Positions 9 to 20,860 of a stretch of 34,720 bases of DNA are shown here, piece by piece (the first letter of the stretch is position 1; each line of letters begins with the position of its first letter). The translations under genes were made by a program, and so were the position numbers. The notes below the pieces were generated by a model. It saw only the letters and a program-made list of their open reading frames with translations. It had not been told where the DNA came from and did no database searches. The stretch covers positions 1 through 34,720 of the forward strand of contig RBNJ01000270.1 of NCBI GenBank assembly GCA_003990765.1. The letters run 5' to 3'. This stretch comes from Jimgerdemannia flammicorona. Taxonomy: Eukaryota.

Positions 9-43
<35 letters not shown>
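9..43 (-). repeat. Poly(A) tail of the minus-strand family A copy (T35 on +)
   Basis: T run directly abuts ATAAAAC, the reverse complement of the repeat end GTTTTAT. Confidence 0.8.
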
Positions 44-47
<4 letters not shown>

Positions 48-528
48 AACAAGTAGATAATAGCGGAAGAGTTTAGAGCGAGATGTGATACTGTTACGGC
101 AGATATGAAGGTCGGCAGTAAAAGGTCAAACAGTTATGAAAAGCTTATGCGAATTTTCACGACGGAACAGAAAGTGGAATAAAGTGTTTTCTGAAGCTAG
201 ATCAGCAACCCGCCCTCAGCACCGCAATGTGCGGTGGTCTTTATTCATTTTAAGAAACAAAGTTCAGGTAAACAAAGACACGGATCTAACCCCAGAATTC
301 CGGAATCGGATAGGTGCATAAGTACTCGGACCTTGCCCCGATCCAAACAAAGGTCTGAATTGGGCTTCGTCAATCTACACACGTGATGGGCCATTAAAAA
401 CCCAATATAGTAACAACCGGGAAAAGGTACCGGTCACGTGATCTAATGTTACATAATCAGTAAACAATGCCAAAAACGGAACTAGACCAATGACGCAACA
501 TGTGTTGTCACGTGATTGTCACTTATAG
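44..528 (-). repeat. Family A terminal repeat (pLTR-like), 3' copy of minus element
   Basis: Direct repeat of 3930-4414 (offset 3886); reverse complement of 4615-5100 and 8501-8986. Confidence 0.9.
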
Positions 529-728
529 GTTTAAAAACCTAAAAATCGTCGGCACCCGAAGGCGCAGGCGTCAGGCCTAGAGCCTTGCGACCAGAGCGGA
601 GTAGAGCCTCAGCACCGGAGTGAGCGAAGCGAGCGGAGGTAGACAGGTGTCACGGAGCGTAGGTATGCAGGCATCAGGCCTAGAGCCTCGCGCCGGAGGT
701 TGTCCAGTGATTTTTCGCGTTTTTAAAC
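529..728 (-). other. Family A 200-bp GC-rich inverted-repeat-bounded module
   Basis: Begins GTTTAAAAAC and ends GTTTTTAAAC; internal direct repeat CAGGCCTAGAGCCT; contains GAGCGAAGCGAG. Confidence 0.85.
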
Positions 729-758
729 ATCGCACAGCACATACAAGCGGTGCGGCCT

Positions 759-2771
759 TCAAGGAGGACTTAGAGCGAAGCTGGTGTTTGAGACGGCATT
801 AAGAACAGTAAAACTGTTCTTTCGGGTGATGATTGGTCGCCGGGCGGTTGCAGGGAAACCAAAACGAAGCAAAGCGGTATGTAGAGTCTTGTCAGGCTGT
901 TGATGTAGCCATCGGGCCATGTCGTATTGGATGACAAGCAATGGGGGAGGAAAAGCGGAGTGGGGGATAGGGGGGTGGGAAATAAGAGGAGGGGTGAGAA
1001 GTGAAGTTCAGACCTCAAGCCAATCAAACAAACTCAATTGAGCAGTTACAACATCAACAGGGTATCCTTTCCTGTGAACCAGGAACTCGGTCAGAGACCG
1101 ACACTCATCAAGCCAATCACAGCGAGAAGAGCAGAGTAGCGAAAGGTGGCGGGCCTCGTTCACGATGCATAGACGGAGCATCTTCCTAGGATGATTGCTC
1201 AACTAGTCAACAAACTGAGTACTACATGGGAACTTAGCAAAGTGGCCTATGCAGAACGGTGCGACTCGGATTTCCAGGTCTAAGTAATGGCATGGTCCGG
1301 CGGACAAGACTTCCCATTCAATATGATGGTGCGGAGGGTACACGGCAGCAAAGATCGAGGCCAAGTCTATGATCGCGGGTGTAAAGACGATAAGATCATC
1401 AATATACCAGCGGAACTTTAGCTCGGCAGCAACGGCTCAGCTAAGCAGATGATCGGGCGCTTGCAAGGCGTACAACTCATAAGCAAAACCAACAAGATTG
1501 GTAAGGTCTGGAGCACAATTAGTGCCCATAGCAATACCAGTCACAGAGCAGAAGGAACCGATGGCAGATGTAAATGTTGTATGAGTCATGACTATGCGGA
1601 TAAGGCTGAGAATGGCTTCAAGTGGCAAGGAGCTAGAGGGGAAGGCCACCGTCAACAAAAAGGTGAGGCAGTCAATGTACTCATCTAATGTGATCCTGGT
1701 GTAGAAGGCAGCGAAATCTCCAGTAGCGATGTATAAGCAATCTGACATATCAAGGTAATCCGATCAAACCAATTGAAGCAGTTTGAGCATATCATACAGA
1801 GGTGAATAACAGGAATAACCCACATTACAGTGCAGATGGGCCGACCACAGACGGAGAAAGCGAGATAGGAAACGCGAAATCTCGGTTGTGGGAGAGTTAA
1901 ACGCACCAACGATAGGGCGCCATACCACATGAGCCCCTTTGTGTACCTTGGGCAGAGCGTGAAACATGGGTAGCTTACAATCGATGGGCTCCATGAGGTG
2001 TTCCCAAATCGGCATACAATCATGATCGCCGATGCAGAACTCGAGTAGACTAAGAAGGTCTAGCCTCACTAATTCCTTAACGTTATCAATCGTAGAGGGA
2101 TCATTCACATACGCAGGATCATGAAGGAGAGACCGAAGACTGTCGAGATAAAGAGTGCGCGGTATAATGGCGAACCCCAGATTCTTGTCGGTAAGACAGA
2201 CAGTGAAGTCATCATGAGTACAGACACCTTTAAGAAGGTGGCAGAACTTCTTCGGTACAAGCGCGCCGGACACATTCGTCGTGGGTCAGACAGCTTGATT
2301 CAAGGTGGCACTCATATGGAGCATAATCTGCATATTTTCCATACAGTGCAGCAGTCGCCATTTAGATGGCACCCAGGTGGAGATCTCCGGGATGTCATCA
2401 GGATTACCCATAGAGGTCCAGAAGGTGGCAAGGTCAAGATGCCATTGGAATGACGACAACGAAATTGGGTTGATGGTGCTGTTCATCGATGCCGACCTGG
2501 GGAGAACAAACTTAGGGCCAAAGTTCAGCATATACGTGAGCTCGGGGGTAAGCCAAGGCGGAGGTATATCGGTAACAAAGCCCTCCTCGGTAAACATCTG
2601 AAACCGAGGGACAAAAAACTGACTTAATCGAGAACTGGGAAGAGAAGACATGAAGGTAAAATCCTCAATTGGTGTCGAGGCCGCTACCCCACGTGGAATG
2701 GGGACATCGGGGCCAAACCACGCTGCTGGGAAGTCATATAAGACTTCCGGGCTGGGGACCTCTAGTTTTTT
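759..2771 (-). pseudogene. Family A PLE reverse transcriptase, interrupted by nonsense codons
   Basis: Same-frame fragments 2286-2651, 1764-2273, 1437-1748, 1008-1202 and 759-941 match the 6378-8207 protein (TDKN, LPKVHK..WRPIV, GDFAAFYT, GIAMGTNCAP, SNHP). Confidence 0.9.
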
Positions 2772-3919
2772 GACGCTAGAGGACAGGCATCACTGGCATT
2801 ATGCCAGACGACATGACGTTTAGTGGCAGTACACTTGTTGCACTGTGGCATAAATGCCCTGGCAGCGCTCTTAGATAAGCAGCTCGAAGTCGATGAGCGG
2901 CTAGTCCTGGTAGAAGTGGAGGAAATGGACAGGGAAGGCGAAGCCTTACACGCTCGCTTGACCCCTTTTACAGAACCTACTGTCAAAGCAGAGGCTAGGG
3001 GGCAAGGACCCCAGTGGGCCTTCGTCGGTACACCAAGACGTCCAGAACAGCTGTGACAGTTCGGCGCGGCAGAGGCCGAAGTCACATCCACCACCTTGGC
3101 CTTTCCTGCAGCCCCCGCAGGTACGGCGGTAGAGGGTGGGGGGGTGGGGACACTCTTTTTCGGTCAGGCGGAACCGGCAGCAGAGGCAAACGTGCATTTA
3201 GCATCCAGAGTAACAATCTCGAGGCGCTTCCCAAGCTCCTCAACCACAGCTTTGCGGGCGGCGGCAGAAATCCCATCTTGCAGGGAGGAGGACGCAGGGA
3301 CAGTCGGGTGGACTGCAGCAGCAGCAGCTTTAGCAGCGGCGGCAGTGGCAAGATAGCGAGATTGACGCATGACAACATCAAAACCACGGAACAAGAACAA
3401 GTTTGTCTTAGCTCTGTCGGTAGCAGCAAGGGTAGCAATATTCTTGGCAACCCCAAGAGTGATATCGACTGATACACCAAAAAACTGATGGGCATCGGAA
3501 GAACCACCCATGGCCTTGTTGATTTTAGCACGCTGGTCCTTAGCATGCTGGGCGGCAGCTTCTTGATCAGAAACGGCAGCCTCGATCGCGGCAGTGGTAC
3601 AGCGCTTAGCTTCTGCCGAAGCAGTAGCAAGGGTGGCATCACGCTGCTCCTTAGGTAGGAGGGCGATGGTAGCAGCTACCTTCTTGGAAGGAGTAAACCT
3701 CCAATCGGCAACTTGGGCCCGTAGGAAATTGGCATGGCATTCTTTCATGGCGGCGATCTCAAGGACAGAGAGCACTCCGGTGCAAGCAGCACGGAAGTAG
3801 GTAGGGACCTCGGCAGACGCGGCAGCAACATAGGCTGCAAGGTTGTCGAACTCCGCCAAATCGGCGAAGGAAGCTTTGGGGATGGCAGCATCGCCATCTA
3901 CATTCATATTATCTGTCAT
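2762..3919 (-). pseudogene. Family A ORF1 (Ala-rich, two CCHC-type fingers) with one internal stop
   Basis: ORFs 3164-3919 and 2762-3094 match 5110-6267; CGA has become TGA at 3164-3166. Confidence 0.88.
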
Positions 3920-3925
3920 GTTGTG

Positions 3926-4414
3926 TATTATAAAACGAGTAGATAATAGCGGAAGAGTTTAGAGCGAGATGTGATACTGTTACGGCAGATATGAAGGTCA
4001 GCGGTAAAAGGTCAAACAGTTATGAAAAGCTTATGTGAATTTTCATGACGGAACAGAAAGCGGAATAAAGTGTTTTCCGAAACTAGATCAGCAACCCGCC
4101 CTCAGCACCGCAATGCGCGGTGGTCTTTATTCATTTTAAGAAACAAAGTTCGGGTAAACAAAGACACAGATCTAACCCCAGAATTCCGGAATCAGATAGG
4201 TGCATAAGTACTTGGACCTTGCCCCGATCCAAACAAAGGTCTGAATCGGACTTCGTCGATCTACACACATGACAGGCCATTAAAAACCCAATATAGTAAC
4301 AACCGGGAAAAGGTACCGGTCACGTGATCTAATGTTATACAATCAGTAAACAATGCCAAAAACGGAACTAGACCAATGATGCAATACGTGTTGTCATGTG
4401 ATTGTCACTTATAG
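3926..4414 (-). repeat. Family A terminal repeat, 5' copy of minus element
   Basis: Direct repeat of 44-528; ends a few bases before the ORF1 ATG at 3919. Confidence 0.9.
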
Positions 4415-4614
4415 GTTTAAAAACCTAAAAATCGTTAGCACCCGAAGGCGCAGGCATCAGGCCTAGAGCCTCACGACCGGAGCGGAGTAGAGCCTCGGCA
4501 CTGGAGCGAGCGAAGTAAGCGGAGGTAGACAGGCATCACAGAGCGTAGGTACGCAGGCATCAGGCCTAGAGCCTCGCGCCGGAGGTTGTCCGGCAATTTT
4601 TCGCGTTTTTAAAC
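4415..4614 (-). other. Family A GC module forming the centre of the palindrome
   Basis: Same orientation as 529-728; the symmetric arms begin at its terminal GTTTAAAAAC/GTTTTTAAAC. Confidence 0.9.
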
Positions 4615-5103
4615 CTATAAGTGACAATCACATGACAACATGTGTTGTGTCATTGGTCTAGTTCTGTTTTTGGCATTGTTTACTGATTGTGTAACATTAG
4701 ATCACGTGACCGGTACCTTTTCCTGATTGTTACTATATCGGGTTTTTAATGGCCCATCACGTGTGTAGATCGACGAAGCCTGATTCAGACCTTTGTTTGG
4801 ATTGGGGCAAGGTCCGAGTACTTATGCACCTATCCGATTCCGGAATTCTGGGGTTAGATCTGTGTCTTTGTTTACCCGAACTTTGTTTCTTAAAATGAAT
4901 AAAGACTACTGCGCATTGCGGTGCTGAGGGTGGGTTGCTGATCTAGCTTCGGAAAACACTTTATTCCGCTTTCTGTTCTGTCGTGAAAATTCACATAAGC
5001 TTTTCATAACTGTTTGACCTTTTACCACCAACCTTCATATCTGCTGTAACAGTATCACATCTCGCTCTAAACTCTTCTGCTATTATCTACTTGTTTTATA
5101 ATA
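4615..5103 (+). repeat. Family A terminal repeat, 5' copy of plus element (probable promoter/5'UTR)
   Basis: Direct repeat of 8501-8989; immediately upstream of the ATG at 5110; clustered CACGTG sites. Confidence 0.9.
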
Positions 5104-5109
5104 CACAAT

Positions 5110-6267
5110 ATGACAGATAATATGAATGTAGATGGTGATGCTGCCGTCCCCAAAGCTTCCTTTGCCGATTTGACGGAGTTCGACAACCTTGCAGCCTATG
5201 TTGCTGCCGCGTCTGCCGAGGTCCCTACCTACTTCCGTGCTGCTTGCACCAGAGTGCTCTCTGCCCTTGAGGTCGCCACCGCGAAAGAACGCTGTGCCGA
5301 TTTCCTATGGGCCCAAGTTGCCGATTGGAGGTTTACTCCTTCCAAGAAGGTAGCTGCTGCCATCGCCCTCTTACCTGAGGAGCAGCGTGATGCCGCCCTT
5401 GCTACTGCTTCGGCAGAAGCTAAGCACTATGCCATTGCCGCGATTGAGGCTGCCGTTTCGGATCAAGAAGCTGCCGCCCAGCATACTAAGGACCAGCATG
5501 CTAAAATCGACAAGGCCATGGGTGGTTCTTCCGATGTCCATCAGTTTTTTGGTGTATCGGTCGATATCACTCTTGGGGTTGCCAAGAATATTGCTACCCT
5601 TGCTGCCACCAACAGAGCTAAGACGAACTTGTTCTTGTTCTGTGGTTTTGACATTGTCGTGCATCAATCTCGCCGTCTTGCCGCCGCCGCCGCTGCTAAA
5701 GCCGCCGCTGCTGCAGTCCGTCTGACTGTCTCTGCATCCTCCTCCCTGCAAGATGGGATTTCTGCCACCGCCCGCAAAGCCATGGTTGAGAAGCTTGGGA
5801 AGCGCCCCGAGATTGTTACTCCGGGTGCTAAACGCACATTTGCCTCTGCTGCTGGTTCCGCCCGACCGAAAAAGAGTATCCCCACCCCCCCACCCTCTAC
5901 CGCCGTGCCTGCGGGGGCTGCGGGAAAGGCCAAGGTGGTAGATGTGACTTCGGCCTCTGCCACGCCGAACTGTCGCAGCTGTTCTGGATGTCTTGGTGTG
6001 CCGACGAAGGCCCACTGGGGTCCTTGCCCCCTAGCCTCTGCTTCGACAGTAGGTTCTGTAAAAGGGGTCAAGCGAGTGCGTAAGGCTTCGCCTTCCCCAT
6101 CCATTTCCTCCACTTCTACTGGGACCAGCCGCTCGTCGACTTCAAGCTGCTCGTCTAAGAGCGCTGCCAGGGCATTTGTGCCGCAGTGCAACAAGTGTAC
6201 TGCCACTAAACGTCATGTCGTCTGGCATAATACTGGCAATGCCTGTCCTCTAGCGTCAAAAAACTAG
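5110..6267 (+). CDS. Family A ORF1, 385 aa, Ala-rich helical region plus two C-terminal CCHC-type zinc fingers (Gag-like role inferred)
   Basis: Intact ORF containing CRSC-x10-H-x3-C and CNKC-x9-H-x5-C; same architecture as family B ORF1. Confidence 0.85.
   Translation: MTDNMNVDGDAAVPKASFADLTEFDNLAAYVAAASAEVPTYFRAACTRVLSALEVATAKERCADFLWAQVADWRFTPSKKVAAAIALLPEEQRDAALATASAEAKHYAIAAIEAAVSDQEAAAQHTKDQHAKIDKAMGGSSDVHQFFGVSVDITLGVAKNIATLAATNRAKTNLFLFCGFDIVVHQSRRLAAAAAAKAAAAAVRLTVSASSSLQDGISATARKAMVEKLGKRPEIVTPGAKRTFASAAGSARPKKSIPTPPPSTAVPAGAAGKAKVVDVTSASATPNCRSCSGCLGVPTKAHWGPCPLASASTVGSVKGVKRVRKASPSPSISSTSTGTSRSSTSSCSSKSAARAFVPQCNKCTATKRHVVWHNTGNACPLASKN
6258..6264 (+). promoter_or_regulatory. Putative -1 ribosomal frameshift heptamer A AAA AAC
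   Basis: In ORF1 phase just before its TAG. The -1 frame is open for 38 codons into the RT ORF and encodes YDFPAAWFGPDVP, homologous to family B NFPPAWFSPDVP. Confidence 0.75.
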
Positions 6268-8270
6268 AGGTCCCCAGCCCAGAAGTCTTATATGACTTCC
6301 CGGCAGCGTGGTTTGGCCCCGATGTCCCCATTCCACGTAGGGTAGCGGCCTCGACACCAATTGAGGATTTTGCCTTCGTGTCTTCTCTTCCCGGTTCTCG
6401 ATTAAGTCAGTTTTTCGTCCCTCGGTTTCAGATGTTTACCGAGGAGGGCTTTGTTACTGATATACCTCCGCCTTGGCTTACCCCCGAGCTCACGTATATG
6501 CTGAACTTTGGCCCTAAGTTTGTTCTCCCCGGGTCGGCATCGATGAACAGCACCATTGACCCGATTTCATTGTCGTCGTTCCAACGGCGTCTTGACCTTG
6601 CCACCTTCTGGACCTCTATGGGTAATCCTGACGACGTCCCGGAGATCTCCGCCTGGGTGCCATCTAAATGGCGACCACCGCACTGTATGGAAAATATGCA
6701 GATTATGCTCCATATGAGTGCCGCCTTGAATCAAGCTATCCGACCCATGACGAATGTGTCCAGCGTACTTGTACCGAAGAAGTTCTGCCACCTTCTTAAA
6801 GGCATCCGTACTCATGATGACTTCACTGTCTGTCTTACCGACAAGAATCTGGGGTTCGCTGTTATATTGCGCGCTCTTTATCTCGACGGTCTTCGGTCCC
6901 TTCTTTACGATCCTGCATACATGAATGATCCCTCTACGATTGATAACGTTAAGGAATCAGTGAGGCTAGACCTTCTTAGTCTACTCGAGTTCTGCATTGG
7001 CGATCATGATTGTATGCCGATTTGGGAACACCTCATGGAGCCCATCGATTGTAAGCTACCCGTGTTTCACGCTCTGCCCAAGGTACACAAAGGGGCTCAC
7101 ATGGCATGGCGCCCTATCGTTGGTACGTTTAACTCTCCCACGACCAAGATTTCGCGTTTCCTATCTCGCTTTCTCCATCTGTGGTCGGCCCATCTGTGCT
7201 ATAATGTGGGTTATTCCCGTTATTCACCTCTGCGTGATATGCTCGAACTGCTTCAATTGGTTCGATCGGATTACCTTGATGTGTCAGATTGCTTATACGT
7301 CGCTACTGGAGATTTCGCTGCCTTCTATACCAGAATCACATTAGATGAGTGCATTGACTGCCTCACCTTTTTGTTGATGGTGGCCTTCCCCCCTGGCTCC
7401 TTGCCGCTTGAAGCCATTCTCGGCCTTGTCTGTATAGTCATGACTCATACGACGTTTATATCCGCCATCGGTTCCTTCCGCTCTGTGACTGGTATTGCTA
7501 TGGGCACTAATTGTGCTCCAGACCTTGCCAATCTTGTTGGTTTTGCTCATGAGTTGCATGCCTTGCAAGTGCCTGATCATCTGCTTAGCCGAGCCGTCGC
7601 TGCCGAGCTAAAGTTCCGCCGGTATATTGATGATCTTATTGTCTTTACGCCCGCAATCATGGACTTGGCCTCGATCTTTGCTGCCGTGTACCCTCTGCAC
7701 CATCGTATCGAATGGGAAGTCTTGTCCGCCGGACCATGCCATTACTTAGACCTGGAAATCCAAGTCGCACTGTTCCACACAGACCGCTTTGCTAAGTTCC
7801 CGCGTAGTACTCAGTTTGTTGACTGGTTGAGCAATCATCCTAGGAAGACGCTCCGTCTATGCATCGTGAACAAGGCCCGCTGCCTTTCGCTACTCTGCTC
7901 TTCTCGCCGTGATTGGCTTGATGAGTGTCGGTCTCTGGCCAAGTTCCTGGTTCACAGGAAAGGATACCCTGTTGATGTTGTAACCGCTCAATTGAGTTTG
8001 GTTGATTGGCTTGAGGTCCAAACTTCACTTCTCACCCCTCCTCTTATTTCCCACCCCCCTATCCCCCACTCTGCTTTTCCTCCCCCATTGCTTGTCATCC
8101 AATACGACACGGCCCGATGGCTACATCAACAGCCCGACAAGACTCTACGTACCGCTTTGCTTCATTTTGGTTTCCCTGCGACCGCCCGGCGACCAATCAT
8201 CACCTGAAAGAACAGTTTTACCGTTCTTAATGCCGTCTCAAACACCAGCTTCGCTCTAAGTCCTCCTTGA
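6264..8270 (+). CDS. Family A Penelope-like reverse transcriptase with no endonuclease domain; premature TGA at 8205-8207, consensus stop 8268-8270
   Basis: Motifs LTDKNLG, FHALPKVHK..WRPIVG..SPT, GDFAAFYT, GIAMGTNCAPDLANL, RRYIDD, HYLDL, SNHP. The minus copy reads through with Arg at the premature stop. Confidence 0.92.
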
Positions 8271-8300
8271 AGACCGCACCGCTTGTACATGCCGTGCGAT

Positions 8301-8500
8301 GTTTAAAAACATGAAAAATCGCCGGACAATCACCGGCGCGAGGCTCTAGGCCTGACACCTGCATACCTACGCTCCGTGACACCTGTCTACCTCCGCTCGC
8401 TTCACTCGCTCCGGTGCCGAGACTCTACTCCACTCCGGTCGCGAGGCTCTAGGCCTGACGTCTACACCTTCGGGTGCCGACGATTTTTAGATTTTTAAAC
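8301..8500 (+). other. Family A GC module downstream of RT
   Basis: GTTTAAAAAC..AAAAATCG at start and CGATTTTT..TTTTTAAAC at end; reverse complement of 529-728. Confidence 0.85.
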
Positions 8501-9005
8501 CTATAAGTGACAATCATGTGACAACACGTGTTGCATCATTGGTCTAGTTCCGTTTTTGGCATTGTTTACTGATTGTGTAACATTAGATCACGTGACCGGT
8601 ACCTTTTCCCAGTTGTTACTATATTGGGTTTTTAATGGCCTGTCACGTGTGTAGATTGACGAAGCCCGATTCAGACCTTTGTTTGGATCGGGGCAAGGTC
8701 CGAGTACTTATGCACCTATCCGATTCCGGAATTCTGGGGTTAGATCCGTGTCTTTGTTTACCCGAACTTTGTTTCTTAAAATGAATAAAGACCACCGCGC
8801 ATTGTGGTACTGAGGGTGGGTTGCTGATCTAGCTTTGGAAAATACTTTATTCCGCTTTCTGTTCCATCATGAAAATTTGCATAAGCTTTTCATAACTGTT
8901 TGACCTTTTACTGCTGACCTTCATATCTGCCATAACAGTATCACATCTCGCTCTAAACTCTTCTGCTATTATCTACTCGTTTTATAATAAAAAAAAATAA
9001 AAAAA
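8501..9005 (+). repeat. Family A 3' terminal repeat plus A-rich tail
   Basis: Repeat of 4615-5103, followed by an A-rich run instead of ORF1. Confidence 0.88.
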
Positions 9006-9054
9006 TTAGTTATGAGTCTTTTGAGATATCTATTAGAATGTATCTATATTGGCA
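9005..9054 (+). repeat. 50-bp flanking sequence identical to 21053-21102 (probable remnant of target duplication)
   Basis: ATTAGTTATGAGTCTTTTGAGATATCTATTAGAATGTATCTATATTGGCA occurs at both places. Confidence 0.85.
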
Positions 9055-9375
9055 GAGGAGGAAGAAGGCCCAGCGGGAGCCAAGGGAGCAAACCCAGAGC
9101 CAGTGTCAAAACAAACGGAAGACATGTGGAAGAGCATGTATAAGGGGGACGAACAAAGAACGTAACCGAAAATGCATCAGCCGTTTATTGCCATGTAAAA
9201 ACGCAGTCCTTATATACAAAATACAACATCCCAAAAGGGAGGATGCACCACAACTCAGGGCGAACCGAATTAGGAACCACATGACCACCGGAGATAGGTG
9301 GAGATAAAGGGGGAGCCAATCTCAGTTGTAGGATAAAAATCACAAACAAACACAAACAAAACAAATCCAAATCGA

Positions 9376-9556
9376 GATTAAAAAACATCCGCAGACCCCG
9401 GAGGGGTGAGCGCGAGCGAGGGGTGAGGCCGAAACGGAGTGAGCTGCAGTGAGCCCGAGCAAAGCGAGGGGCCGAAGGCAGCAGAGGGGAGTGGAGTAAG
9501 GCCGAGACCCCGGAGCGAGCGCGAGACCCCAGAGAGGGCAAGGATGTTTTTTAATC
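9376..9556 (-). other. Family B 181-bp GC module
   Basis: Perfect 15-bp inverted repeat GATTAAAAAACATCC / GGATGTTTTTTAATC at its ends. Confidence 0.88.
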
Positions 9557-11605
9557 CTCTCTGGCAGAACCGGAGGTACCAGAAGGTGATGAAAATGCAA
9601 AACAAGAGCGATGGATTGAAGAAGAAATGGAAGGAAGACACGAATGAGCAATCAGAGGGCATCGGGAAAGAGATGAAAGTCCATGGCGTGAAAGAGAAGA
9701 GCGCAGGATGGTATCAGGGCATTGAGCAACCCAGCGAGTATGATCAAATGGTACGATAAGAATTGGGGGTGGGAAAGAAGAGGGGGTACGGAGAGGGTAA
9801 GGGGGGAGAGAGGGAAGGGAGGGGGGATAAAGAGGAGAGAGTAGGGTAGATCGAACAACAGATCATTCAACAGAAGCAAGTAGATCACGAACGATAGAAA
9901 TAGGGTAGGCATGATGATGGACCACGAAGTTGCCAAGAACCCGAACAGCAGACACCCAATAAGAACAACGGGAGCAGCATAATGCAAGACGATGAGCCTC
10001 ACCCCGAATACATTCAAGAAGAGTGCGACGAGGATGATTGGACAAGAAGTCAGGGAACTGTTGGGAATGGGGAAAACGAGAATAAACAACAGTTCGGAAA
10101 GGAGAAAGAGAAATGGAAAGGTCCAAAAAGGGAATACTAGTCATACCGCACACCCAGGTAATAGAATGGTGGGGAGGGTAGACATCCAGGAACACACTAG
10201 GGATATCAACACCAGCAACAGTGAAGACAATAAAGTCATCAATGTATTGGCAAAAGAAGATATCCCCAGCCCGGAACGTAATGGAAAGAGGTGAAGTAAT
10301 ATCACATAATGCACGCAGTTCATGGGCCAGGCCAACGAGGTTGGCAAGGGTGGGGGCACAATTCGTACCCATGGCAATACCAGAAGTCTGGTGAAAGGAG
10401 CCAAGGGCCGACTCAAAATAATTAGAGCCACAGACGAGGAGCGTAAGCTCAACAATAGAAGCCAGCGAAACCAGGGAATCCAAAGGAAAAACCAAGGAAC
10501 CCAAGAAGCGAAGACAATTATCGATCTCATCAAAACGAATAGCAGTATAGAAGGAAGAGAAGTCACCAGAGGCCAAATGGGAAAAGCGATGAACAGGCAC
10601 AATGGTGGAGCAGAGAAGGGCGAGCTCCTGAGTATCGTGAAGAATAGTATACTCAGGCCCAAGATGGTGTTGTAAGAGAGCCATCTAGGAGAGAAAGAAG
10701 TTGGATAACCACTTCGAAATCTCGGTGGTAGGAGAACTGTAAGCAGCCATAATAGGACGCCAAGCCAAAATAGGCTTGTGAACTTTAGGAAGAGCATAGA
10801 AAACTGGAAGAGAAATATCCGGGGAGGACAAAGAGTCCTGGAAGAAGTTAAAAATGGGGTTCACGAATGGGAAATCCGAAAGTGATCTAGCATGAGCCAG
10901 AGAAACCCGAAGAAGAGTGAGAACCTCATCCAATCCAAGAGCACTAGGCTCGTAAGCCATGGCTCGAAGGAGGGCAGAAAGGCCATCAAGGTAGAGCGAC
11001 TTAGGAATAAGTACAAAACCCTGATTCTTATCAGTGACTGTGAGCAGATACATAGGCAATTGCTTGACCGATTTAAGCATGGTATGCATGGCACGGTCCG
11101 AAACCAAGCAAGAGCGAGCTTGTATAGGAATGGACAGTGAGTAAGCCATGTCAAGGAATATGCAGTGTGAAGAGACATTGAGAGGGGGGACCCAATCACT
11201 AGGGACAAAGTAGCGGGAGGGCATCTCACCACGATCTTGAAAGAAAATGGCAAGGTCAAGAGCACGACAAAAATGTGTAAGATGAGCCAGATCAGTGAAG
11301 GAGAATTGTGAGGGAGTCGCAGGAAAAACAAAGTGAGGACCCAAGGATAAGGCAAAGACTTGAAGGGGAGAAAGGGGGCAGTTAGCCAAAGAAAAAGGAG
11401 GAGACAAAAGTGTTCCAAGAGAAGAGTAAACCCGAAAGTTCAGAACAAGCAACTGGGAAAGACGAAGGGGGGACAACATGAGGAACCACTCAGGGTGCAC
11501 CAGAAGCGACGACGGAATCTGAGAAGGGACGGGGACATCGGGGGAGAACCACGCCGGGGGGAAGTTTAAGAGTGGGAGGCCTTCCCCTTCCCTCTGACTT
11601 TTTTT
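9551..11605 (-). pseudogene. Family B PLE reverse transcriptase copy 1, with nonsense codons
   Basis: ORFs 10685-11635 and 9863-10684 are in one frame: TDKNQG, LPKVHK..WRPI, GDFSSFYT, GIAMGTNCAP, YIDD, SNHP. Confidence 0.9.
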
Positions 11606-12794
11606 GAAGGTGGCGAGCCCGACGAATGGGAGCACATCCCGTCAGAGTGCCAGACCTTGCAGCCACAGGCTTTCATGCAGCCCTTACATTCAGGGGCACA
11701 GGTGGAGGAGGCGGAGGAGGAACCAGCAGAGGAGGCCGAAGGTGAGCGAGCAGCTGGAGGGACAGCAGCACGAGGAACACCACCATGAGGACAGACGGAC
11801 TTGGCTGGGTGCCAGTAGGCACAGTGGAGGCAACCGGAGCAGACGCGCAAGGCCAGGCCCTGACAGGGCGAGAACCAAGTTGGCGGCCATACTTGGGGGC
11901 AGGGGGAACGGAGGAGGAAGCCTTGGCGGGGGAGGGGGACCAGGAAGAGGCCGATGAAGCCTGGTTGGGCTTGGTGGGGGTCTTGGTGGGGGTCTTGGAG
12001 AGGGCCTTGGCGGTGGCGGCAGTGAAGGAACGAACCTCAGCACGAGCAGCAGCACGAGCTTCGGCACGGATGGCCTCAGAGACTGAAACCTCGGGGGAGG
12101 TAGGCAGAGGAGCAGTGGCAGTGGCACGAGCAGCGGCGGCAGTACGTGATGACTCTTGCTCGTGAAGGTGAGTAATAAAAGAGGTGCCAGCGAGAAGGAA
12201 ACGATATACAGCGTTGATGTTGGCAGCGACAGAAGGAATGTCTTGGATGGTGAAGCTGCAGAAAGGGGCAGCATCCGAAAGGTGAGAGGAGGCGAAGGCC
12301 ACGAAAGCGGCACAGGCACGTTGGAAGGAGGTGGAAGCAGTGGCGGCGGAAGCAGTGGCAGCATCAGTGGTAGCATCAGTGGCAGCGAGCTTGGTGGTAG
12401 TAGTGGTGGCACGAACCTCTTTGGAGAGGGCTTGGCGGCGGGCCTCGGGGAGAACAGAGTAGCGGACAGCGGGTGGAGCGACGACATCGACATTACAGCG
12501 GAGATGAGCCTCCTTGGCGGAGAGGGCAAGAACCGACTGGAACTGAGAGAGGAGTGGATGACCAGAAGGACAAAGGTCCAGGGGAAGGGAAAGGATGGCA
12601 GAAGAGACATAGGTCTCGAAGGAGACAGTGGCGGGGGTGAAGGCAGGGGGAGGAGGAGGAGGAAGTACCTCATCCATGAGCTCGTCGATGAGGACGGAGG
12701 CCCCGAGGGCAGACAGTACAGCAGAGGAGAAAGAAGGCCCAGCAGGAGCCAAGGGAGCGAACCCAGAGCCAGTGTCAAAACGAACGGAAGACAT
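11566..12794 (-). pseudogene. Family B ORF1 copy 1, frameshifted before the zinc fingers
   Basis: N-terminal part of 11673-12794 plus 11566-11850 together match 17133-18350. Confidence 0.85.
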
Positions 12795-13044
12795 GTGGAA
12801 GAGTGTGTATAAGGGGGACGAATAAAGAATGTAACCGAAAATGCATCAGCTGTTTATTGCCACGTAAAAACACGGTCCTTATATACAAAATACGACGTCC
12901 CAAAAGGGAGAACGTGCCACAACTCGGGGCAAACCGAATTAGGAACCACATGACTGCCGGAGATAGGCGGAGATAAAGGGGGAGCCAATCCCAGTTGCAG
13001 GATAAAAATCACAAACAAACACAAACAAAACAAATCCAAATCAA

Positions 13045-13225
13045 GATTAAAAAACATTCTTGCCCCCTCCGAGGTCTTGCGCTCACTCCGGGGTCTCGGC
13101 CTTACTCTGCTCCCCTCCGCTGCCTTCGGCTCCTTGCTTCGCTCGGGCTCGCTGCGGCTCGCTCCATTTCGGCCTCACCCCTCACTTGCGCTCACCCCTC
13201 TGGGGTCTGCAGATGTTTTTTAATC
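13045..13225 (+). other. Family B GC module at the centre of the palindrome
   Basis: Matches 16702-16882; symmetric arms start at the GATTAAAAAACAT / ATGTTTTTTAATC repeat. Confidence 0.9.
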
Positions 13226-13475
13226 TCGATTTGGATTTGTTTTGTTTGTGTTTGTTTGTGATTTTTATCCTGCAACTGGGATTGGCTCTCCCTTTATCTC
13301 CGCCTATCTCCGGCAGTCATGTGGTTCCTAATTCGGTTCGCCCCGAGTTGTGGCACGTCCTCCCTTTTGGGACGTCATATTTTGTATATAAGGACCACGT
13401 TTTTACGTGGCAATAAACGGCTGATGCATTTTCGGTTACGTTCTTTATTCGTCCCCCTTATACACGCTCTTCCAC

Positions 13476-14692
13476 ATGTCTTCCATTCGTTTTGACACTG
13501 GCTCTGGGTTTGCTCCCTTGGCTCCTGCTGGGCCTTTTTCCTCCTCTGCTGTACCACCTGCCCTCGGGGCCTCCGTCCTCGTCGACGAGCTCATGGATGA
13601 GATACTTCCTCCTCCTCCTCCCCCTGCCTTCACCCCCGCCACTGTCTCCTTCGAGACCTACGTCTCTTCTGCCATCCTTTCCCTCCCCCTGGACCTTCAT
13701 CCTTCTGGTCGTCCGCTCCTCTCTCAGTTCCGGTCGGTTCTTGCCCTCTCCGCCAAGGAGGCTCATCTCCACCATGATGTCGACGTCGTCGCTCCGCCCA
13801 CCATCTGCTACTCTATTCTCCCCGAGGCCCGCTGCCAAGCCCTCTCTGAAGAGGTTTGTGCTGCCACTACTGCCACCAAGCTTGCTGCCGCTGATGCTGC
13901 TGCTGCTTTCGCCGCCACTGCTTCTGCCTCCTTCCAACATACCTGTGCCGCTTTCGTGGCCTTCGCCTCCTCTCGCCTTTCGGATGCTGCCCCTTTCTGT
14001 GGCTTCGCCATCTAAGACATTCCTTCTGTCGCTGCTGACATTGACGCTGTACATCGTTTCCTCCTCACCAGCACCTCTTTTGTTGCTTGCCTTTATGAGC
14101 AGGAGTCATCACATGCTGCCGCCGCTGCTCATGCCGCTGCCACTGCTCCTCTGCCTATCTCCCCCGAGGTTTCGGTCTCCGAGGCCATCCGTGCTGAAGC
14201 TTGTGCTGCTGCTTGTGCTGAGGTTCATTCCTTCGCTGCTGCCGCTGCCAAGGCCCCCTCCAAGACCCCCGCCAAGACCCCCGCCAAGCCCAATCAGGCT
14301 TCGTCGGCCTCTTCCTGATCCCCCTCCCCCACCAAGGCTTCCTTCTCCATTCCCCCTGCCCCAAGCATGGCCGCCAACTTGGTTCTCGCCCTGTCGGGGC
14401 CTGGCCTTGCGCTGTCTGCTCCGGTTGCCTCCATCGTGCCTACTGGCACCCAGCCAAGTCCGTCTGTCCTTATGGTGGTGTTCCTCACGCTGCTGCCCCT
14501 CCAGCTGCTCACTCGCCTTCGGCCTCCTCTGCCGGTTCCTCCTCCGCCTCCTCCATCCGTGCCCCTGAATGTAAGGGCTGCACGAAAGCCTGTGGCTGCA
14601 AGGTCTGGCACTCTGATGGGGTGTGCTCCCATTCGTCGGGCTCGCCACCTTCAAAAAAAGTCAGAGGGAAGGGGAAGGCCTCCCGCTCTTAA
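13476..14692 (+). pseudogene. Family B ORF1 copy 2 (stops and a frameshift)
   Basis: MSSIRFDTGSG start; CAA has become TAA at 14013-14015; matches copy 3. Confidence 0.85.
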
Positions 14693-16707
14693 ACTTCCCC
14701 CCGGCGTGGTTCTCCCCCAGTGTCCCCATCCCTTCTCGGATTCCGTCGTCGCTTCTGGTGTGCCCTGAGTGGTTCCTCATGTTGTCCCCCCTTCGCCTTT
14801 CCCAGTTGCTTGTCCCGAACTTTCGGGTTTACTCTTCTCTTGGAACACTTTTGTCTCTTCCTTTTTCTTTGGCTGACTGCCCTCTTTCTCCCCTTCAAGT
14901 CTTTGCCTTATTCTTGGGTCCTCGCTTTGTTTTTCCTGCGACTCCCTCACAATTCTCCTTCACTGATCCGGCTCGTCTTATACGTTTTCGTCGTGCTCTT
15001 GACCTTGCCATTTTCTTTCAAGATCGTGGTGAGATGCCCTCCTGCTACTTTGTCTCTAGCAATTGGGTCCCTCCTCCCAATGTCTCTTCACACTGCGTAT
15101 TCCTCGACATGGCTTGCTCACTGTCCGTTCCTGGATGAGCTCACTCTTGCTTGGTTTCGGACCATGCTGTGCGTACCGCACTTAAATCGGTCAAGCAATT
15201 GCCTATGCACCTACTCACAGTCACTGATAAGAATCAGGGTTTTGCACTTATTCCTAAGTCGCTCTACCTTGATGGCCTTTCTGCCCTCCTTTGAGCCACG
15301 GCTTACGAGCCTAGTGCTCTTGGATTGGATGAGGTTCTCACTCTTCTTCGGGTTTCTCTGGCTCATGCTAGATCGCTTTCGGATTCCCCGTTCGCGAACC
15401 CCATTTTTAACTTCTTCCAGAACTCTTTGTCCTCCCCGGATGTTTCTCTTCCAGTTTTCTATGCTCTTCCTAAAGTTCACAAGCCTATTCTGGCTTGGCG
15501 TCCTATTACAGCTGCTTACAGTTCTCCTACCACCAAGATTTCGAAGTGGTTATCCTGCTTCTTTCTCTCCTGGATGGCTCTCTTACAACACCGTCTTGGG
15601 CCTGAGTATACTATTCTTCGCGATACTCAGGAGCTCGCCCTTCTCTGCTCCACCATTGTGCCTGTTCATCGCTTTTCCCATTTGGCCTCTGGTGACTTCT
15701 CTTCCTTCTATACTGCTATTCGTTTTGATGAGATCGATGATTGCCTTCGCTTCTTGGGTTCCTTGGTTTTTCCTTTGGATTCCCTGGTTTCGCTGGCTTC
15801 TATTGTTGAGCTTACGCTCCTTGTCTGCGGCTCTAATTATTTTGAGTCGGCCCTTGGCTCCTTTTACCAGACTTCTGGTATTGCCATGGGTACGAATTGT
15901 GCCCCCACTCTTGCCAACCTCGTTGGCCTGGCCCATGAACTGCGTGTGTTACGTGATATTACTTCACCTCTTTCCATTGCGTTCCGGGCTGGGGATATCT
16001 TCTTTCGCCGATACATTGATGACTTTATTATCTTCACTGTTGCTGGTATTGATATCCCTAGTGTGTTCCTGGGCGTCTACCCTCCCCACCATTCTATTAC
16101 CTGGGTGTGCGGTATGACTAGTATTCCCTTTTTGGACCTTTCCATTTCCCTTTCTTCTTTCCAAACTGTTGTTTATTCTCGTTTTCCCCGTTCCCAACAG
16201 TTCCCTGACTTCTTGTCCAATCATCCTCGTTGCACTCTTCTTGAATGTGTTCGGGGTGAGGCTCATCGTCTTGTATTATACTGCTCCTGTCGTTCTGATT
16301 GGGTGTCTGCTGTTTGGGTTCTTGGCAACTTCGTGGTCCATTGTCGTGCCTACCCTATTTCTATTGTTCGTGATCTGCTTGCTTCTGTTGAATGGTCTGT
16401 TGTTTGATCTACCCTACTCTCTCCTCTTTATCCCCCCTCCCTTCCCTCTCTCCCCCCTTACCCTCTCCGTACCCCCTCTTCTTTCCCACCCCCGATTCTT
16501 GTCATACCATTTGATCATGCTTGCTGGGTTGCTCAATGCCCTGATACCGTCCTGCGCTCTTCTCTTTCATGCCATGGACTTTTATCTCTTTCCCAATGCC
16601 CTCTGATTGCTCGTTCGCATCTTCCTTCCATTTCTTCTTCAATCCATCGCTCTCGTTTTGCGTTTTCATCACCTTCTGGTGCCTCCAGTTCTGCCGGAGA
16701 GGATTAA
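14653..16707 (+). pseudogene. Family B PLE reverse transcriptase copy 2, several CGA-to-TGA stops
   Basis: ORFs 14623-15138 and 15325-16407 are in one frame with RRYIDD; the natural TAA lies inside the module inverted repeat. Confidence 0.9.
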
Positions 16708-16882
16708 AAAACATCCTTGCCCCCTCCGGGGTCTCGCGCTCGCTCCGGGGTCTCAGCCTTACTCTGCTCCCCTCTGCTGCCTTCGGCCCCTCGCTTCACT
16801 CGGGCTCGCTGTGGCTCACTCCGTTTCGGCCTCACCCCTCGCTCACGCTCACCCCTCCAGGGTCTGCAGATGTTTTTTAATC
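16702..16882 (+). other. Family B GC module between tandem copies
   Basis: GATTAAAAAACATC...GATGTTTTTTAATC; internal repeat CCCCTCCGGGGTCT. Confidence 0.85.
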
Positions 16883-17132
16883 TCGATTTGGATTTGTTTT
16901 GTTTGTGTTTGTTTGTGATTTTTATCCTGCAACTGGGATTGGCTCCCCCTTTATCTCTGCCTATCTCCGGCGGTCATGTGGTTCCTAATTCGGTTCGCTC
17001 CGAGTTGTGGCACATCCTCCCTTTTGGGATGTCATATTTTGTATATAAGGACCACGTTTTTACGTGGCAATAAATGGCTGATGCATTTTCGGTTACGTTC
17101 TTTGTTTGTCCCCCTTATACATGCTCTTCCAC

Positions 17133-18350
17133 ATGTCTTCCGTTCGTTTTGATACTGGCTCTGGGTTCGCTCCCTTGGCTCCCGCTGGGCCTTCTTCCTC
17201 CTCTGCTGTACCGCCTGCCCTTGGGGTCTCCGTCCTCATCGACAAGCTCATGGATGAGGTACTTCCTCCTCCTCCTCCCCCTGCCTTCACCCCTGCCACT
17301 GTCTCCTTCGAGACCTACATCTCTTCTGCCATCCTTTCCCTCCCCCTGGACCTTCGTCCTTCTGGTCGTCCGCTCCTCTCTCAGTTTCAGTCGGTTCTTG
17401 CCCTCTCCGCCAAGGAGGCTCATCTCCGCTGTGATGTTGACATCATCGCTCCGCCCACTGTCCGCTACTCTGTTCTCCCCGAGGCCCGCCGCCAAGCCCT
17501 CTCCGAAGAGGTTCGTGCCGCCACTGCCACCACCAAGCTCGCTGCCGCTGATGCTGCCACTGCTTCCACCGCCACCGCTTCCGCCTCCTTCCAACGTGCC
17601 TGTGCCGCTTTCGTGGCCTTTGCCTCCTCTCGTCTTTTGGATGCTGCCCCTTTCTGCGGCTTCGCCATCCAAGATGTTCCTTCTATCGCTGCTGACATTG
17701 ACGCTGTATGTCGTTTCCTCCTTGCCGGCACCTCTTTTGTTGCTCGCCTTCACAAGCAGGAGTCATCACGTGCTGCCGCCGCTGCTTGTGCCACTGCCAC
17801 TGCTCCTCTGCCTACCTCCCCCGAGGTTTCGGTCTCCGAGGCCATCTGTGCCGAAGCTCGTGCTGCTGCTTGTGCTGAGGTTCATTCCTTCGCTGCCGCC
17901 GCTGCCAAGGCCCCCTCCAAGACCCCTGCCAAGACCCCTGCCAAGCCCAACCAGACTTCGTTGGCCTCTTCCCGGTCCCCCTCCCCCACCAAGGCTTTCT
18001 CCTCCATTCCCCCTGCCTCCAAGCGTAGCTGCCAACTTGGTTCTCACCCTGTCGGGGCCTGGCCTTGCGCTGTCTGCTCCAGTCACCTCCACTATACCTA
18101 CTGGCACCCGGCCAAGTCCGTCTGTCCTCATGGTGGTGTTCCTCGCACTACTGTCCCTCTAGCTGCTCGCTCGCCTTCGGCCTCCTCTGCCAGTTCCTGC
18201 TCCGCCTCCTCCACCTGTGCCCCTGAATGTAAGGGCTGCACGAAAGCCTGTGGCCATAAGGTCTGGCACTCTGATGGGGTGTGCTCCCATTCATCGGGCT
18301 CGCCACCTTCAAAAAAAGTCAGAGGAAAGGGGAAGGCCTCCTGCTCTTAA
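17133..18350 (+). CDS. Family B ORF1 copy 3, 405 aa, Ala-rich with two CCHC-type zinc fingers
   Basis: Open frame; CAVC-x9-H-x5-C and CKGC-x9-H-x4-C, each with WH. Confidence 0.85.
   Translation: MSSVRFDTGSGFAPLAPAGPSSSSAVPPALGVSVLIDKLMDEVLPPPPPPAFTPATVSFETYISSAILSLPLDLRPSGRPLLSQFQSVLALSAKEAHLRCDVDIIAPPTVRYSVLPEARRQALSEEVRAATATTKLAAADAATASTATASASFQRACAAFVAFASSRLLDAAPFCGFAIQDVPSIAADIDAVCRFLLAGTSFVARLHKQESSRAAAAACATATAPLPTSPEVSVSEAICAEARAAACAEVHSFAAAAAKAPSKTPAKTPAKPNQTSLASSRSPSPTKAFSSIPPASKRSCQLGSHPVGAWPCAVCSSHLHYTYWHPAKSVCPHGGVPRTTVPLAARSPSASSASSCSASSTCAPECKGCTKACGHKVWHSDGVCSHSSGSPPSKKVRGKGKASCS
18311..18317 (+). promoter_or_regulatory. Putative -1 frameshift heptamer A AAA AAA (also 14653-14659 and 11599-11605 minus)
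   Basis: ORF1 reads tcA AAA AAA gtc while the RT frame is -1; a possible pseudoknot follows. Confidence 0.65.
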
Positions 18351-20365
18351 ACTTCCCCCCAGCGTGGTTCTCCCCCAGTGTCCCCGTCCCTTCTCGGATT
18401 CCGTCGTCGCTTCTGGTGCGCCCTGAGTGGTTCCTCATGTTGTCCCCCCTTCACCTTTCCCAGTTGCTTGTCCCGAACTTTCAGGTTTACTCTTCTCTTG
18501 GAACACTTTTATCTCCTCCTTTTTCTTCGGCTGACTGTCCCCTTTCTCCCCTTCAAGTCTTTGCCTTATTCTTGGGTCCTCACTTTGTTTTTCCTGCGAC
18601 TCCCTCACAATTCTCCTTCACTGATCCGGCTCATCTTACACATTTTCGTCGTGCTCTTGACCTTGCCATTTTCTTTCAAGATCGTAGTGAGATGCCCTCC
18701 TGCTACTTTGTCCCTAGCAATTGGGTCTCCCCTCCCAATGTCTCTTCACACTGCGTATTCCTTGACATGGCTTGCTCACTGTCCGTTCCTGGACAAGCTC
18801 GCTCTTGCTTGGTTTCGGACTGTGCCATGCATACCACACTTAAATCGGTCAAGCAATTGCCTATGCACCTGCTCACAGTCACTGATAAGAATCAGAGTTT
18901 TGCACTTATTCCTAAGTCGCTCTACCTTGATGGCCTTTCTGCCCTCCTTCAAGCCATGGCTTACGAGCCTAGTGCTCTTGGATTGGATGAGGTTCTCACT
19001 CTTCTTCGGATTTCTCTGGCTCATGCTAGATTGCTTTCGGATTCCCCATTCGCGAACCCCATTTTTAACTTCTTCCAGGACTCTTTGTCCTCCCCGGATA
19101 TTTCTCTTCTGGTTTTCTATGCTCTTCCTAAAGTTCACAAGCCTATTTTGGCTTGGCGTCCTATTATGGCTGCTTACAGTTCTCCTACCACCGAGATTTC
19201 GAAATGGTTATCCTGCTTCTTTCTCTCCTGGATGGCTCTCTTACAACACCATCTTGGGCCTGAGTATACTATTCTTCGCGATACTCAGGAGCTCACCCTT
19301 CTCTGCTCCACCATTGTGCCTGTTCATCACTTTTCCCATTTGGCCTCTGGTGACTTCTCTTCCTTCTATACTGCTATTCGTTTTGATGAGATCGATGATT
19401 GCCTTCGCTTCTTGGGTTCCTTGGTTTTTCCTTTAGATTCCCTGGTTTCGCTGGCTTCTATTGTTGAGCTTACGCTCCTCATCTGCAGCTCTAATTATTT
19501 TGAGTTGGCCCTTGGCTCCTTTCACCAGACTTCTGGTATTGCCATGGGTATGAATTGTGCCCCCACCCTTGCCAACCTCGTTGGCCTGGCCCATGAACTA
19601 CATGCATTACATGATATTACTTCACCTCTTTCCATTGCTTTCCGGGCTGGGGATATCTTCTTTCACTGATACATTGATGACTTTATTGTCTTCGCTGTTG
19701 CTGGTGTTGATATCCCTAGTGTGTTCCTGGGCGTCTATCCTCCCCACCATTCTATTATCTGGGTGTGCGGTACGACTAGTATTCCCTTTTTGGACCTTTC
19801 CATTTCTCTTTCTCCTTTCCGAACTGTTGTTTATTCTTGTTTTCTCCATTCCCAACAGTTCCCTGACTTCTTGTCCAATCATCCTCATCGCACTCTTCTT
19901 GAATATGTTTGGGGTGAGGCTCGTCGTCTTGCATTATGCTGCTCCCATCGTTCTGATTGGGTGTCTGCTGTTCGGGTTCTTGGCAAATTCGTGGTCCATC
20001 GTCGTGCCTACCCTATTTCTATCGTTCGTGATCTGCTTGCTTCTGTTGAATTGTCTGTTGTTCGATCTACCCTACTCTCTCCTCTTTATCCCCCCTCCCT
20101 TCCCTCTCTCCCCCCTTACTCTCTCCATACCCTCTCTTCTTTCCCACCCCCGATTCTTGTCATACCATTTGATCATGCTCGCTGGGTTGCTCAACGCCCT
20201 GATACTGTCCTGCACTCTTCTCTTTCACGCCATGGACTTTCATCTCTTTCCTGACGCCCTCTGATTGCTCGTTTGCATCTTCCTTCCATTTCTTCTTCAA
20301 TCCATCGCTCTCGTTTTGCGTTTTTGTCACCTTCTGGTACCTCCAGTTCTGCTGGAGAGGATTAA
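18311..20365 (+). pseudogene. Family B PLE reverse transcriptase copy 3, two CGA-to-TGA stops
   Basis: ORFs 18281-19669 and 19721-20254 are in one frame; the first stop falls immediately before YIDD. Confidence 0.9.
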
Positions 20366-20860
20366 AAAACATCCTTGCCCCCTCCAGGGTCTCATGCTCA
20401 CTCCAGGGTCTCGGCCTTACTCTGCTCCCCTCCGCTGCCTTCGGCCCCTCGCTTCGCTCAGGCTCGCTGTGGCTCGCTCTGTTTCGGCCTCACCCCTCGC
20501 TCGTGCTCACCCCTCCAGGGTCTGCAGATGTTTTTTAATCTTGATTTGGATTTGTTTTGTTTGTGTTTGTTTGTGATTTTTATCCTGCAACTGGGATTGG
20601 CTCACCCTTTATCTCCGCCTATCTCCGGCGGTCATGTGGTTTCTAATTCGGTTCACCCCGAGTTGTGGCGCATCCTCCCTTTTAGGACGTCATATTTTGT
20701 ATATAAGGACCGCATTTTTACATGGCAATAAATGGCTGATGCATTTTTGGTTATGTTCTTTGTTTGTCCCCCTTATACACACTCTTCCACATGTCTTCCA
20801 TTCATTTTGACACTGGCTCTGGGTTCGCTTCCTTGGCTCCCGCTGGGCCTTCTTCCTCCT
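20360..20860 (+). repeat. Family B terminal GC module, terminal repeat and first ~70 nt of ORF1
   Basis: Repeat of 16702-17202; similarity stops at CTTCTTCCTCCT. Confidence 0.88.

Follow-up and report, generated by a model that had tools for sequence, protein, structure and literature searches.

Contig RBNJ01000270.1 (C270) of Jimgerdemannia flammicorona, analysed here over its entire 34,720 nucleotides (nt) and referred to as the window, begins with a palindrome of about 9 kb. The palindrome is a head-to-head pair of units of a retroelement, here called family A, which is an endonuclease-less Penelope-class element found at interstitial sites. Its copies make it fairly probable that the free 3' ends of a DNA break each prime reverse transcription separately, and that the two sides are sealed at a module of the element, instead of one side being copied back from the other. 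The evidence lies in the architecture and its recurrence, the common template of the two arms, the independence of their outer ends, the duplications and deletions of the target and the lack of a detectable nuclease. Searches of the own genome (G000) were made in the 231-Mb eukaryotic assembly; labels beginning with L denote loci and those beginning with C denote contigs.

Structure of the family-A palindrome

The top strand of the family-A copy reads, from 5' to 3', T35, an antisense unit, an antisense 195-nt module, a sense unit and an A-rich tail. The length of the unit is 3886 nt. The parts are listed below; UTR stands for untranslated region, LTR for long terminal repeat, ORF for open reading frame and RT for reverse transcriptase or reverse transcription.

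1-8: A8, directly before T35, at the contig start
9-43, minus strand: T35, the left-arm A-tail, abutting GTTTTAT directly, without AAT
44-533 (from 39 in the unit mapping), minus strand: outer UTR of the left arm, second part of the pseudo-LTR
534-728, minus strand: outer 195-nt module of the left arm
729-3928, minus strand: left-arm body with ORF1 (ATG at 3919) and the RT ORF2, both interrupted by stops
3926-4419, minus strand: inner UTR of the left arm
4415-4614 (4420-4614 in the unit mapping), minus strand: central module, a single copy in left-arm sense, the axis of the palindrome
4415-4424, pairing with 4605-4614: closing stem of the central module, 10 nt
4610-5103, plus strand: inner UTR of the right arm
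5101-8300, plus strand: right-arm body
8301-8495, plus strand: outer module of the right arm
8496-8988 (to 8990 in the unit mapping), plus strand: outer UTR of the right arm, ending GTTTTAT AAT
8989-9005, plus strand: right tail A9 T A7, no mirror of the left tail

This order had been noted in the original prediction and was confirmed by unit mapping. The prediction had also placed the joining of both tails at essentially one repeat position, and both do attach after GTTTTAT, the left one directly and the right one via an added AAT. Its caveat that the right tail is an inexact mirror with an internal T was equally correct, as the right end reads AAT A9 T A7. Many family-A contigs break at tails, and the A8 at the contig start may represent target sequence, a further tail or the edge of the assembly.

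Self-alignment of the arms covers 8985 columns with 92.5% identity and 6 gaps. The arms differ by 287 transitions and 4 transversions per 4381 aligned bases, and the decayed state is found in the left arm at 153 sites and in the right arm at 134. Because the arms have decayed independently, a read-chimera artefact is excluded, and the palindrome is an old genomic structure.

The centre is a trait of the family

A search with a 321-nt centre query gave 303 first-look candidates, of which 40, including the window, were scored. All 40 have the same centre junction, invariably in the order UTR(-), module, UTR(+), a recurrence that chance could not nearly explain. Contigs C477, C1154 and C1563, which were picked only via a match to the outer module, have centres too. 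On each strand the module forms a long imperfect hairpin (z -4.7 and -5.4), and the folding energy, being similar for the two, gives no support for a strand preference. Central modules are intact apart from a bulge in the closing stem. This stem is native in 29 of the 40 centres; in 10 the 3' stem of the antisense-module strand has been rewritten from the 5' stem, and in one the reverse is seen, a 10:1 polarity that fits fold-back. Outer modules are native wherever compared, and each insertion has therefore created its centre afresh. The switch at the centre is stereotyped and uses a built-in 10-nt stem.

The motif GCGAAGC, which we take to be a very stable DNA mini-hairpin, is found on the strand with the sense of complementary DNA (cDNA) in the three best-preserved modules, in a comparison that included window 534-728, and is absent from the RNA-sense strand. 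The modules of L057, L063 and C5955 have lost about 80 nt internally, between their short direct repeats. The loss affects the outer as well as the central module of C5955, whose centre is still formed normally.

The same design is found in a second element, family B, an older copy of which adjoins family A in the window.

9052-20860: family-B palindrome, one unit on the left and two on the right, without poly(A)
13045-13218: centre module of family B, 174 nt, with a 13-nt closing stem

The RT of family B is about 40% identical to that of family A, a similar heptamer is located near its ORF1/ORF2 overlap, and no endonuclease was found in it. Its search gave 779 first-look candidates, of which 40 were scored, and the same centre design is present in all 40. 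Loci L162 (C21501) and L172 (C9866) are family-B palindromes with both arms of about 830 bp and no RT, non-autonomous forms that resemble miniature inverted-repeat transposable elements.

Both arms come from one template lineage

Across the 40 family-A loci, transitions make up 7363 of the 7625 arm differences and are concentrated at CpG (28%, vs 9% at CpA, 5% at CpC and 4% at CpT); the differences between arms are mostly later CpG decay. By transversions, the nearest relative of an arm is its partner arm in 17 of the 20 loci with two long arms, and the partner ranks fourth or better in the other three. The median transversion distance is 2.9 per kb within a locus, compared with 15.6 between loci, and left arms do not cluster among themselves. 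This supports the original proposal of one event from one template lineage, and the possibility of independent insertions of different subfamilies, which had been named as the finding that would overturn the prediction, is excluded by these distances.

The four UTR copies of a locus are related in a star-like manner, 2:2 patterns being shared by arm 71 times, crosswise 75 times and in mirror fashion 84 times in 15 loci. Inner and outer UTRs are about 1.5-2.5 events apart, as against 15.6 between loci. Hence, as in LTRs, each round usually passes on a single UTR. We infer that the source is a unit-length RNA with a template jump. At L053 (C35:38033-38217) an internal tail, AAT A27, is located between two family-A units, one of which ends near module position 33, where the tail of the next unit is attached; this tail appears to be a direct trace of such a jump.

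In L034, 10 of 15 transversions are in the outer 570 nt and the outer UTR is nearest to other loci, so that the copy seems to have taken its outer part from another subfamily, with the centre at the usual stem. Family-B arm haplotypes are identical in 37 of 40 loci, compared with 11% of between-locus pairs. The arms of L158, a family-B copy, differ at 7 of 11 diagnostic sites around a normal centre and come from two subfamilies.

Independent outer ends of the two arms

Tails were compared in the 18 family-A loci with both ends; the rule that defined a tail may also count some AT-rich bases of the target. In 7 loci the module-bearing arm has the longer tail, in 7 the other arm does, one is a tie and three are open at contig ends. 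Module orientation and the end with the longer tail are thus uncorrelated, which comes close to refuting the predicted link between the module and the primed end, provided that the longer tail marks that end. The AAT junction is discordant between the arms in 3 of the 18 loci. In two of them, the window and L047, the supposed copy arm has an AAT which the supposed template arm does not. On the non-module arm of C1563 the end consists of a tail, a second GTTTTATAAT and another tail, and reads as a re-initiation.

The arms also differ in length, with 0, 1 or 2 units per family-A arm. At L033 the module arm is short and tailed while the other arm is longer, at L037 the other arm has at least part of a second unit, and at L054 a short other arm ends in its own A-tail at the inner site. 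Loci with a truncated module-bearing arm (L035, L039, L042, L050, L052, C613, C2306 and C6195) were excluded from the arm-length counts. The spacing in L050 and C722 points to an insertion of about 5 kb that came later.

In family B the ends of both arms cluster, to within a few bases, at a single site about 74 nt inside ORF1, with no tail, the end being a CCT/CTT run. Among its 40 centres, 17 have a long module arm and a short other arm, 7 have the reverse, 8 have two long arms, 2 have two short arms and 6 were undecided. The module-bearing arm is accordingly the shorter one in 7 of the 24 asymmetric copies. This, together with L033 and L037, contradicts the view of the second arm as a mere copy. 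The outer ends of the two arms appear to have been formed independently.

Target sites

The target survey covered 13 family-A loci with both ends inside contigs and 11 family-B loci. Long direct duplications were found in 4 of the 13 informative family-A loci. Three of them measure about 311 bp (L044), 462 bp (L053) and 715 bp (L047), and the fourth, at L036, reaches 2811 bp, 338 bp of which is visible. In family B there is an 843-bp duplication at C6624 and one of 240 bp at the window copy. Comparison with intact repeat copies revealed target deletions of 10 (L038), 11 (C722) and 6 bp (C2621), and larger ones of about 165 bp (L043) and about 200 bp (C5361); the target gaps of L031 and C1924 are ambiguous. 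None of the 11 family-B junctions has a short duplication above 4 bp, none is evident in the family-A flanks, and no telomere repeats adjoin the targets. At L051 a match of 119 bp, 6.5 kb from the end, was left out of the duplications. Such a spread of duplications and deletions would fit pre-existing breaks or distant nicks, and not a dedicated nuclease.

The target sequences in the window are the following.

9004-9051: host target, 48 bp, also found at 21052-21100 and in C778
20861-21100: 240-bp target duplication of family B, with its partner at C778:15245-15006

The 240-bp segment is 100% identical to its partner in C778, compared with at most 83% for other genomic copies. Related repeats show that the C778 flank, this segment and the window from 21101 on originally formed one continuous stretch. 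Next to the segment in C778 comes a family-B end whose junction is that of window 9052. The outer 500-690 nt of that end have the haplotype of the window family B and share decays with window 9052-9556 (32 differences in 503); the remainder is of another subfamily. A duplicated target of about 550-730 bp therefore begins at the right end of family A and extends into the family-B end. The copies of this target have diverged by 6.4%, the family-A arms by 6.6%.

The other target copy, in C778, is followed by a different family-B palindrome instead of family A; this palindrome ends in single-copy DNA. With the left flank of family A unassembled, either the two ends of one break may have been repaired with different families and connected to other partners, or later ectopic recombination may have moved the left target copy. 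Joining C778 to the window start through the terminal T run is unproven, as this run belongs to a repeat that ends many contigs. In the C778 palindrome itself (L187, C778:15245-10231) three UTR haplotypes are present, and at UTR position 39 the sequence jumps to a new 3' end.

Further along the window, three other features were noted.

21100-26630, plus strand: heavily decayed element resembling a long interspersed nuclear element (LINE), with GDFN and FADN remnants, an A-rich 3' end and zero CpG in 5.5 kb
about 29680-30340: imperfect tandem repeats of 85-116 nt
30489-31073, minus strand: C-terminal dimerisation domain of a hAT transposase (PF05699, E 4e-14)

Model for the insertion and alternative explanations

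We propose that pre-existing broken or staggered DNA ends receive the endonuclease-less element. Each free 3' end would prime RT at a 3' start site that is fixed, lies after GTTTTAT/AATA and leaves a stuttered A-tail, and both primings would nearly always take place on RNA from one source. The two growing ends would then be joined at the self-complementary module that heads the pseudo-LTR. Possibly the first cDNA folds back on the module stem and the cDNA of the second end anneals to the new strand; that two cDNAs anneal stem to stem is a somewhat more doubtful option. The finished products of these two routes are expected to be nearly identical. Host repair would fill both strands, and the arms would later decay by CpG transitions. 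We infer the RNA ends, the order of the steps and the source of the breaks.

The original prediction took the palindrome for first-strand cDNA followed by its own copy, that is, a single cDNA that started on poly(A), turned back on itself at the module and was extended as far as its own oligo(T). The product would then be ligated into the second end. The predicted single template and switch at the stem with the 10:1 polarity have held, but the copying through to the oligo(T) has not. Several observations speak for such full copy-back, and weigh against separate priming. Besides the arms being identical at birth and the stem polarity, the module is usually on the long arm in family B (17 vs 7, p 0.064), the tails of L059 are identical, although both are located at contig ends, and in 5 of the 18 loci the first tail begins with the whole of the second, which in two of them is just AATA. 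The short arm of C7176 and of C778 agrees with the innermost repeat, the last to be copied, and not with the outer one, which makes fold-back at the centre more likely than annealing of two cDNAs alone. Furthermore, A-tracts mutate after insertion; several subfamilies meet in L034, L158, C7176 and C778, yet arm identity at birth needs one source; and the chimeric copies could stem from later ectopic recombination. The loci were mostly retrieved by their centre junction, which places the share of non-palindromic copies outside the count, and the mechanism is read from sequence. Nevertheless, the AAT in the second tail of the window and of L047 is missing from the first, the second tail is longer in 7 of 14 decided loci, and 7 family-B and 2 family-A loci have a longer second arm. 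Where the second arm is short, it ends precisely at the RT start, with a tail of its own (L054) or none (17 family-B loci), and kilobase duplications need both overhangs to be kept. Full copy-back is thus unlikely.

Other explanations have even less in their favour. Host replication or recombination at the module stem might have made single-arm insertions palindromic later, or flipped the module. The stem is a plausible switch site, and a later crossover between arms could account for the 7 short/long copies and the chimeras. However, the inverted copy never reaches into the flank and ends at the RT start site on both sides, and the star-like UTRs show no mirror excess, which makes this origin very unlikely. 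Capture by host end joining of a whole palindrome, made extrachromosomally as linear double-stranded DNA, would agree with the invariant centre, the common template and the small target deletions, and distant relatives of the element assemble as unit-length circles or tandems. Against it stand the stuttered and re-initiated ends right at the target junctions, the long target duplications, the variable number of units per side and a primer source that is not evident; we give it, if anything, slightly less credit. Two independent insertions at one site, or an assembly artefact, have nothing specific in their favour and are hardly credible in view of the within-locus distances, the same centre in 40 of 40 loci and the independent decay of the arms.

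Separate priming with sealing at the module may, as a tentative extension, be the normal insertion mode of the element, an RT-driven joining of any two free 3' ends via the module. If so, it would leave kilobase duplications, small deletions and sometimes rearrangements, and would do so without nuclease, telomere repeat or ribozyme. The window would then represent one staggered break whose right end received family A and whose left end (C778) received family-B RNA, each end being closed afterwards to a different partner end.

Coding capacity and classification

The coding features of family A were assigned on the right arm.

5110-6267, plus strand: ORF1, 385 aa, Ala-rich, with two C-terminal Cys/His clusters
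6258-6264, plus strand: heptamer A AAA AAC before the ORF1 stop, with a hairpin downstream of the heptamer
6231-8207, plus strand: ORF2, Penelope/telomerase-like RT, overlapping ORF1

No family was matched in a Pfam scan of ORF1, and an Atlas search gave only a weak match of 0.75. The heptamer precedes the ORF1 stop in all 8 commonest variants of the site (54 arms) and is a probable -1 frameshift site. Alignments of ORF2 contain the RT motifs DKN, LPKVHK, GDF, GIAMG, YIDD, SNHP and GYP, as well as a thumb; the window ORF2 stops about 21 codons short of the end in most other copies. An alignment-based structure model of the RT (predicted local distance difference test, pLDDT, 81.6) was used, and a single-sequence model (pLDDT 35.9) was set aside. 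The top three Foldseek matches of the model are telomerase reverse transcriptases (E about 2e-8), with viral RNA-dependent RNA polymerases and retron RTs close behind; a sequence search of PDB gave no meaningful match.

Pfam detected no GIY-YIG domain in ORF1 or ORF2, and none in the 30 relatives scanned of 150 listed. These relatives are ORF1-RT fusions or RT-only proteins, none with a nuclease match. A scan of 81 sequences for a GIY-YIG motif, used without a positive control, gave a single off-strand match. One of ten relatives looked up is a protein from the fungus Racocetra fulgida. The relatives may resemble Coprina. An Rfam search of 1-21200 (E up to 5) found no hammerhead, of which a decayed or atypical core could escape, and its two small nucleolar RNA matches are due to chance. 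The motif CTGANGA is confined to ORFs in the copies of the window. No run of three TTAGGG units was found in the own-genome element loci examined; TTAGGG arrays are present on other contigs of the same genome, among the first 100 of 883 matches listed.

Family A has the pseudo-LTRs from partial tandems and the inverted copy of Penelope-like elements. As in endonuclease-deficient (EN-) members, no endonuclease was found, ORF1 is upstream of the RT and there is a putative frameshift; the GIY-YIG domain and short target duplication of endonuclease-bearing (EN+) members were not seen in the element. It was not filed as Coprina or Athena, because neither their telomeric location nor their hammerhead in the terminal repeat was found in it.

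A metagenome scan gave 22 distant RT loci with 21-37% identity. None has a long inverted repeat, most of the contigs (2-4 kb) being too short to show one. In this set (L127-L147), 11 of the 22 are on contigs of 3.1-3.7 kb with identical ends, and the L138 contig is a near-perfect 3196-nt tandem. Judging from such contigs, these relatives appear to be unit-length circles or head-to-tail arrays.

Comparison with known elements

A pseudo-LTR tandem with an inverted 5' copy is described for the EN+ Penelope-like elements Pen2a_Av and Pen3a of Adineta vaga (PMC3846280), and the same tandem-plus-inverted architecture for the EN+ elements Naiad and Chlamys (PMC8557442). Self-priming has already been proposed for the head-to-head form of EN+ elements (PMC3846280, PMC8557442), whereas fungal endonuclease-deficient elements are said not to share this organisation (PMC3846280). 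Common to these four elements and family A are the partial tandems, the head-to-head inverted copy and the palindrome at the junction; a 3' end just before or inside ORF1 is likewise common to the EN+ relatives and the present families. The EN+ relatives have GIY-YIG, duplications of 8-10 bp in the cases described and a 5'-truncated inverted copy. In contrast, the families described here have no nuclease that could be found, an invariant centre, both arms ending at the RT start site, outward A-tails (family A) and duplications of up to kilobases.

Coprina and Athena have been described as telomeric, with reverse-complement telomere repeats and a hammerhead ribozyme (PMC8557442, PMC13159263, PMC4209133). 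They share with the present elements an RT with DKN and thumb, the lack of an endonuclease, the frameshift junction at ORF1, direct repeats and a 3' end attached to a free DNA end (PMC8557442, PMC13159263, PMC4209133, PMC6431247). Unlike them, the copies here are interstitial, with no adjoining telomere repeats and no hammerhead found.

In twin priming of L1 the second end primes RT and the two cDNA ends anneal, and L1 also gives fold-back junctions and translocations from RT-extended ends (PMC11702581). L1, however, cuts its own site, its second priming is internal on the RNA, its duplications are 12-18 bp and such joined products are side outcomes (PMC11702581), whereas here the 3' site would be the start for both ends and a dedicated module their meeting point. 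Insertions of the LINE Dualen-4b_cRei are flanked by duplications with a median of 900 bp, which its authors credit to its two endonucleases (PMC9977147); family A shows none. Poseidon PAc of Anolis starts RT at fixed internal RNA sites without target homology, extends both strands and is a predicted dimer (PMC11167929). The family-B end about 74 nt into ORF1 resembles this internal start, but PAc has GIY-YIG and a hammerhead ribozyme (PMC11167929), neither of which was found in families A and B.

In the literature searched, which lay outside supplements and most subscription papers, there was no interstitial endonuclease-less family with fixed palindromic centres and long duplications; the supplements of PMC8557442 may list similar fungal elements. 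These results bear on the question of how Penelope-like elements form head-to-head structures. A fixed centre across copies amounts to a population test, which rejects simple copy-back and points to separate priming. With one RT, one 3' start site and one 195-nt module, family A also provides a compact system for distinguishing fold-back from two-cDNA annealing. Endonuclease-less members have been described as confined to chromosome ends, and the two families here are spread through chromosome interiors, a finding that links telomerase-like end extension to break repair. The architecture is known from endonuclease-bearing relatives, and its use by an interstitial endonuclease-less family is, on the literature searched, new. 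On our best reading, family A resembles in its action an end-capping Penelope element that is active at the two sides of a break.

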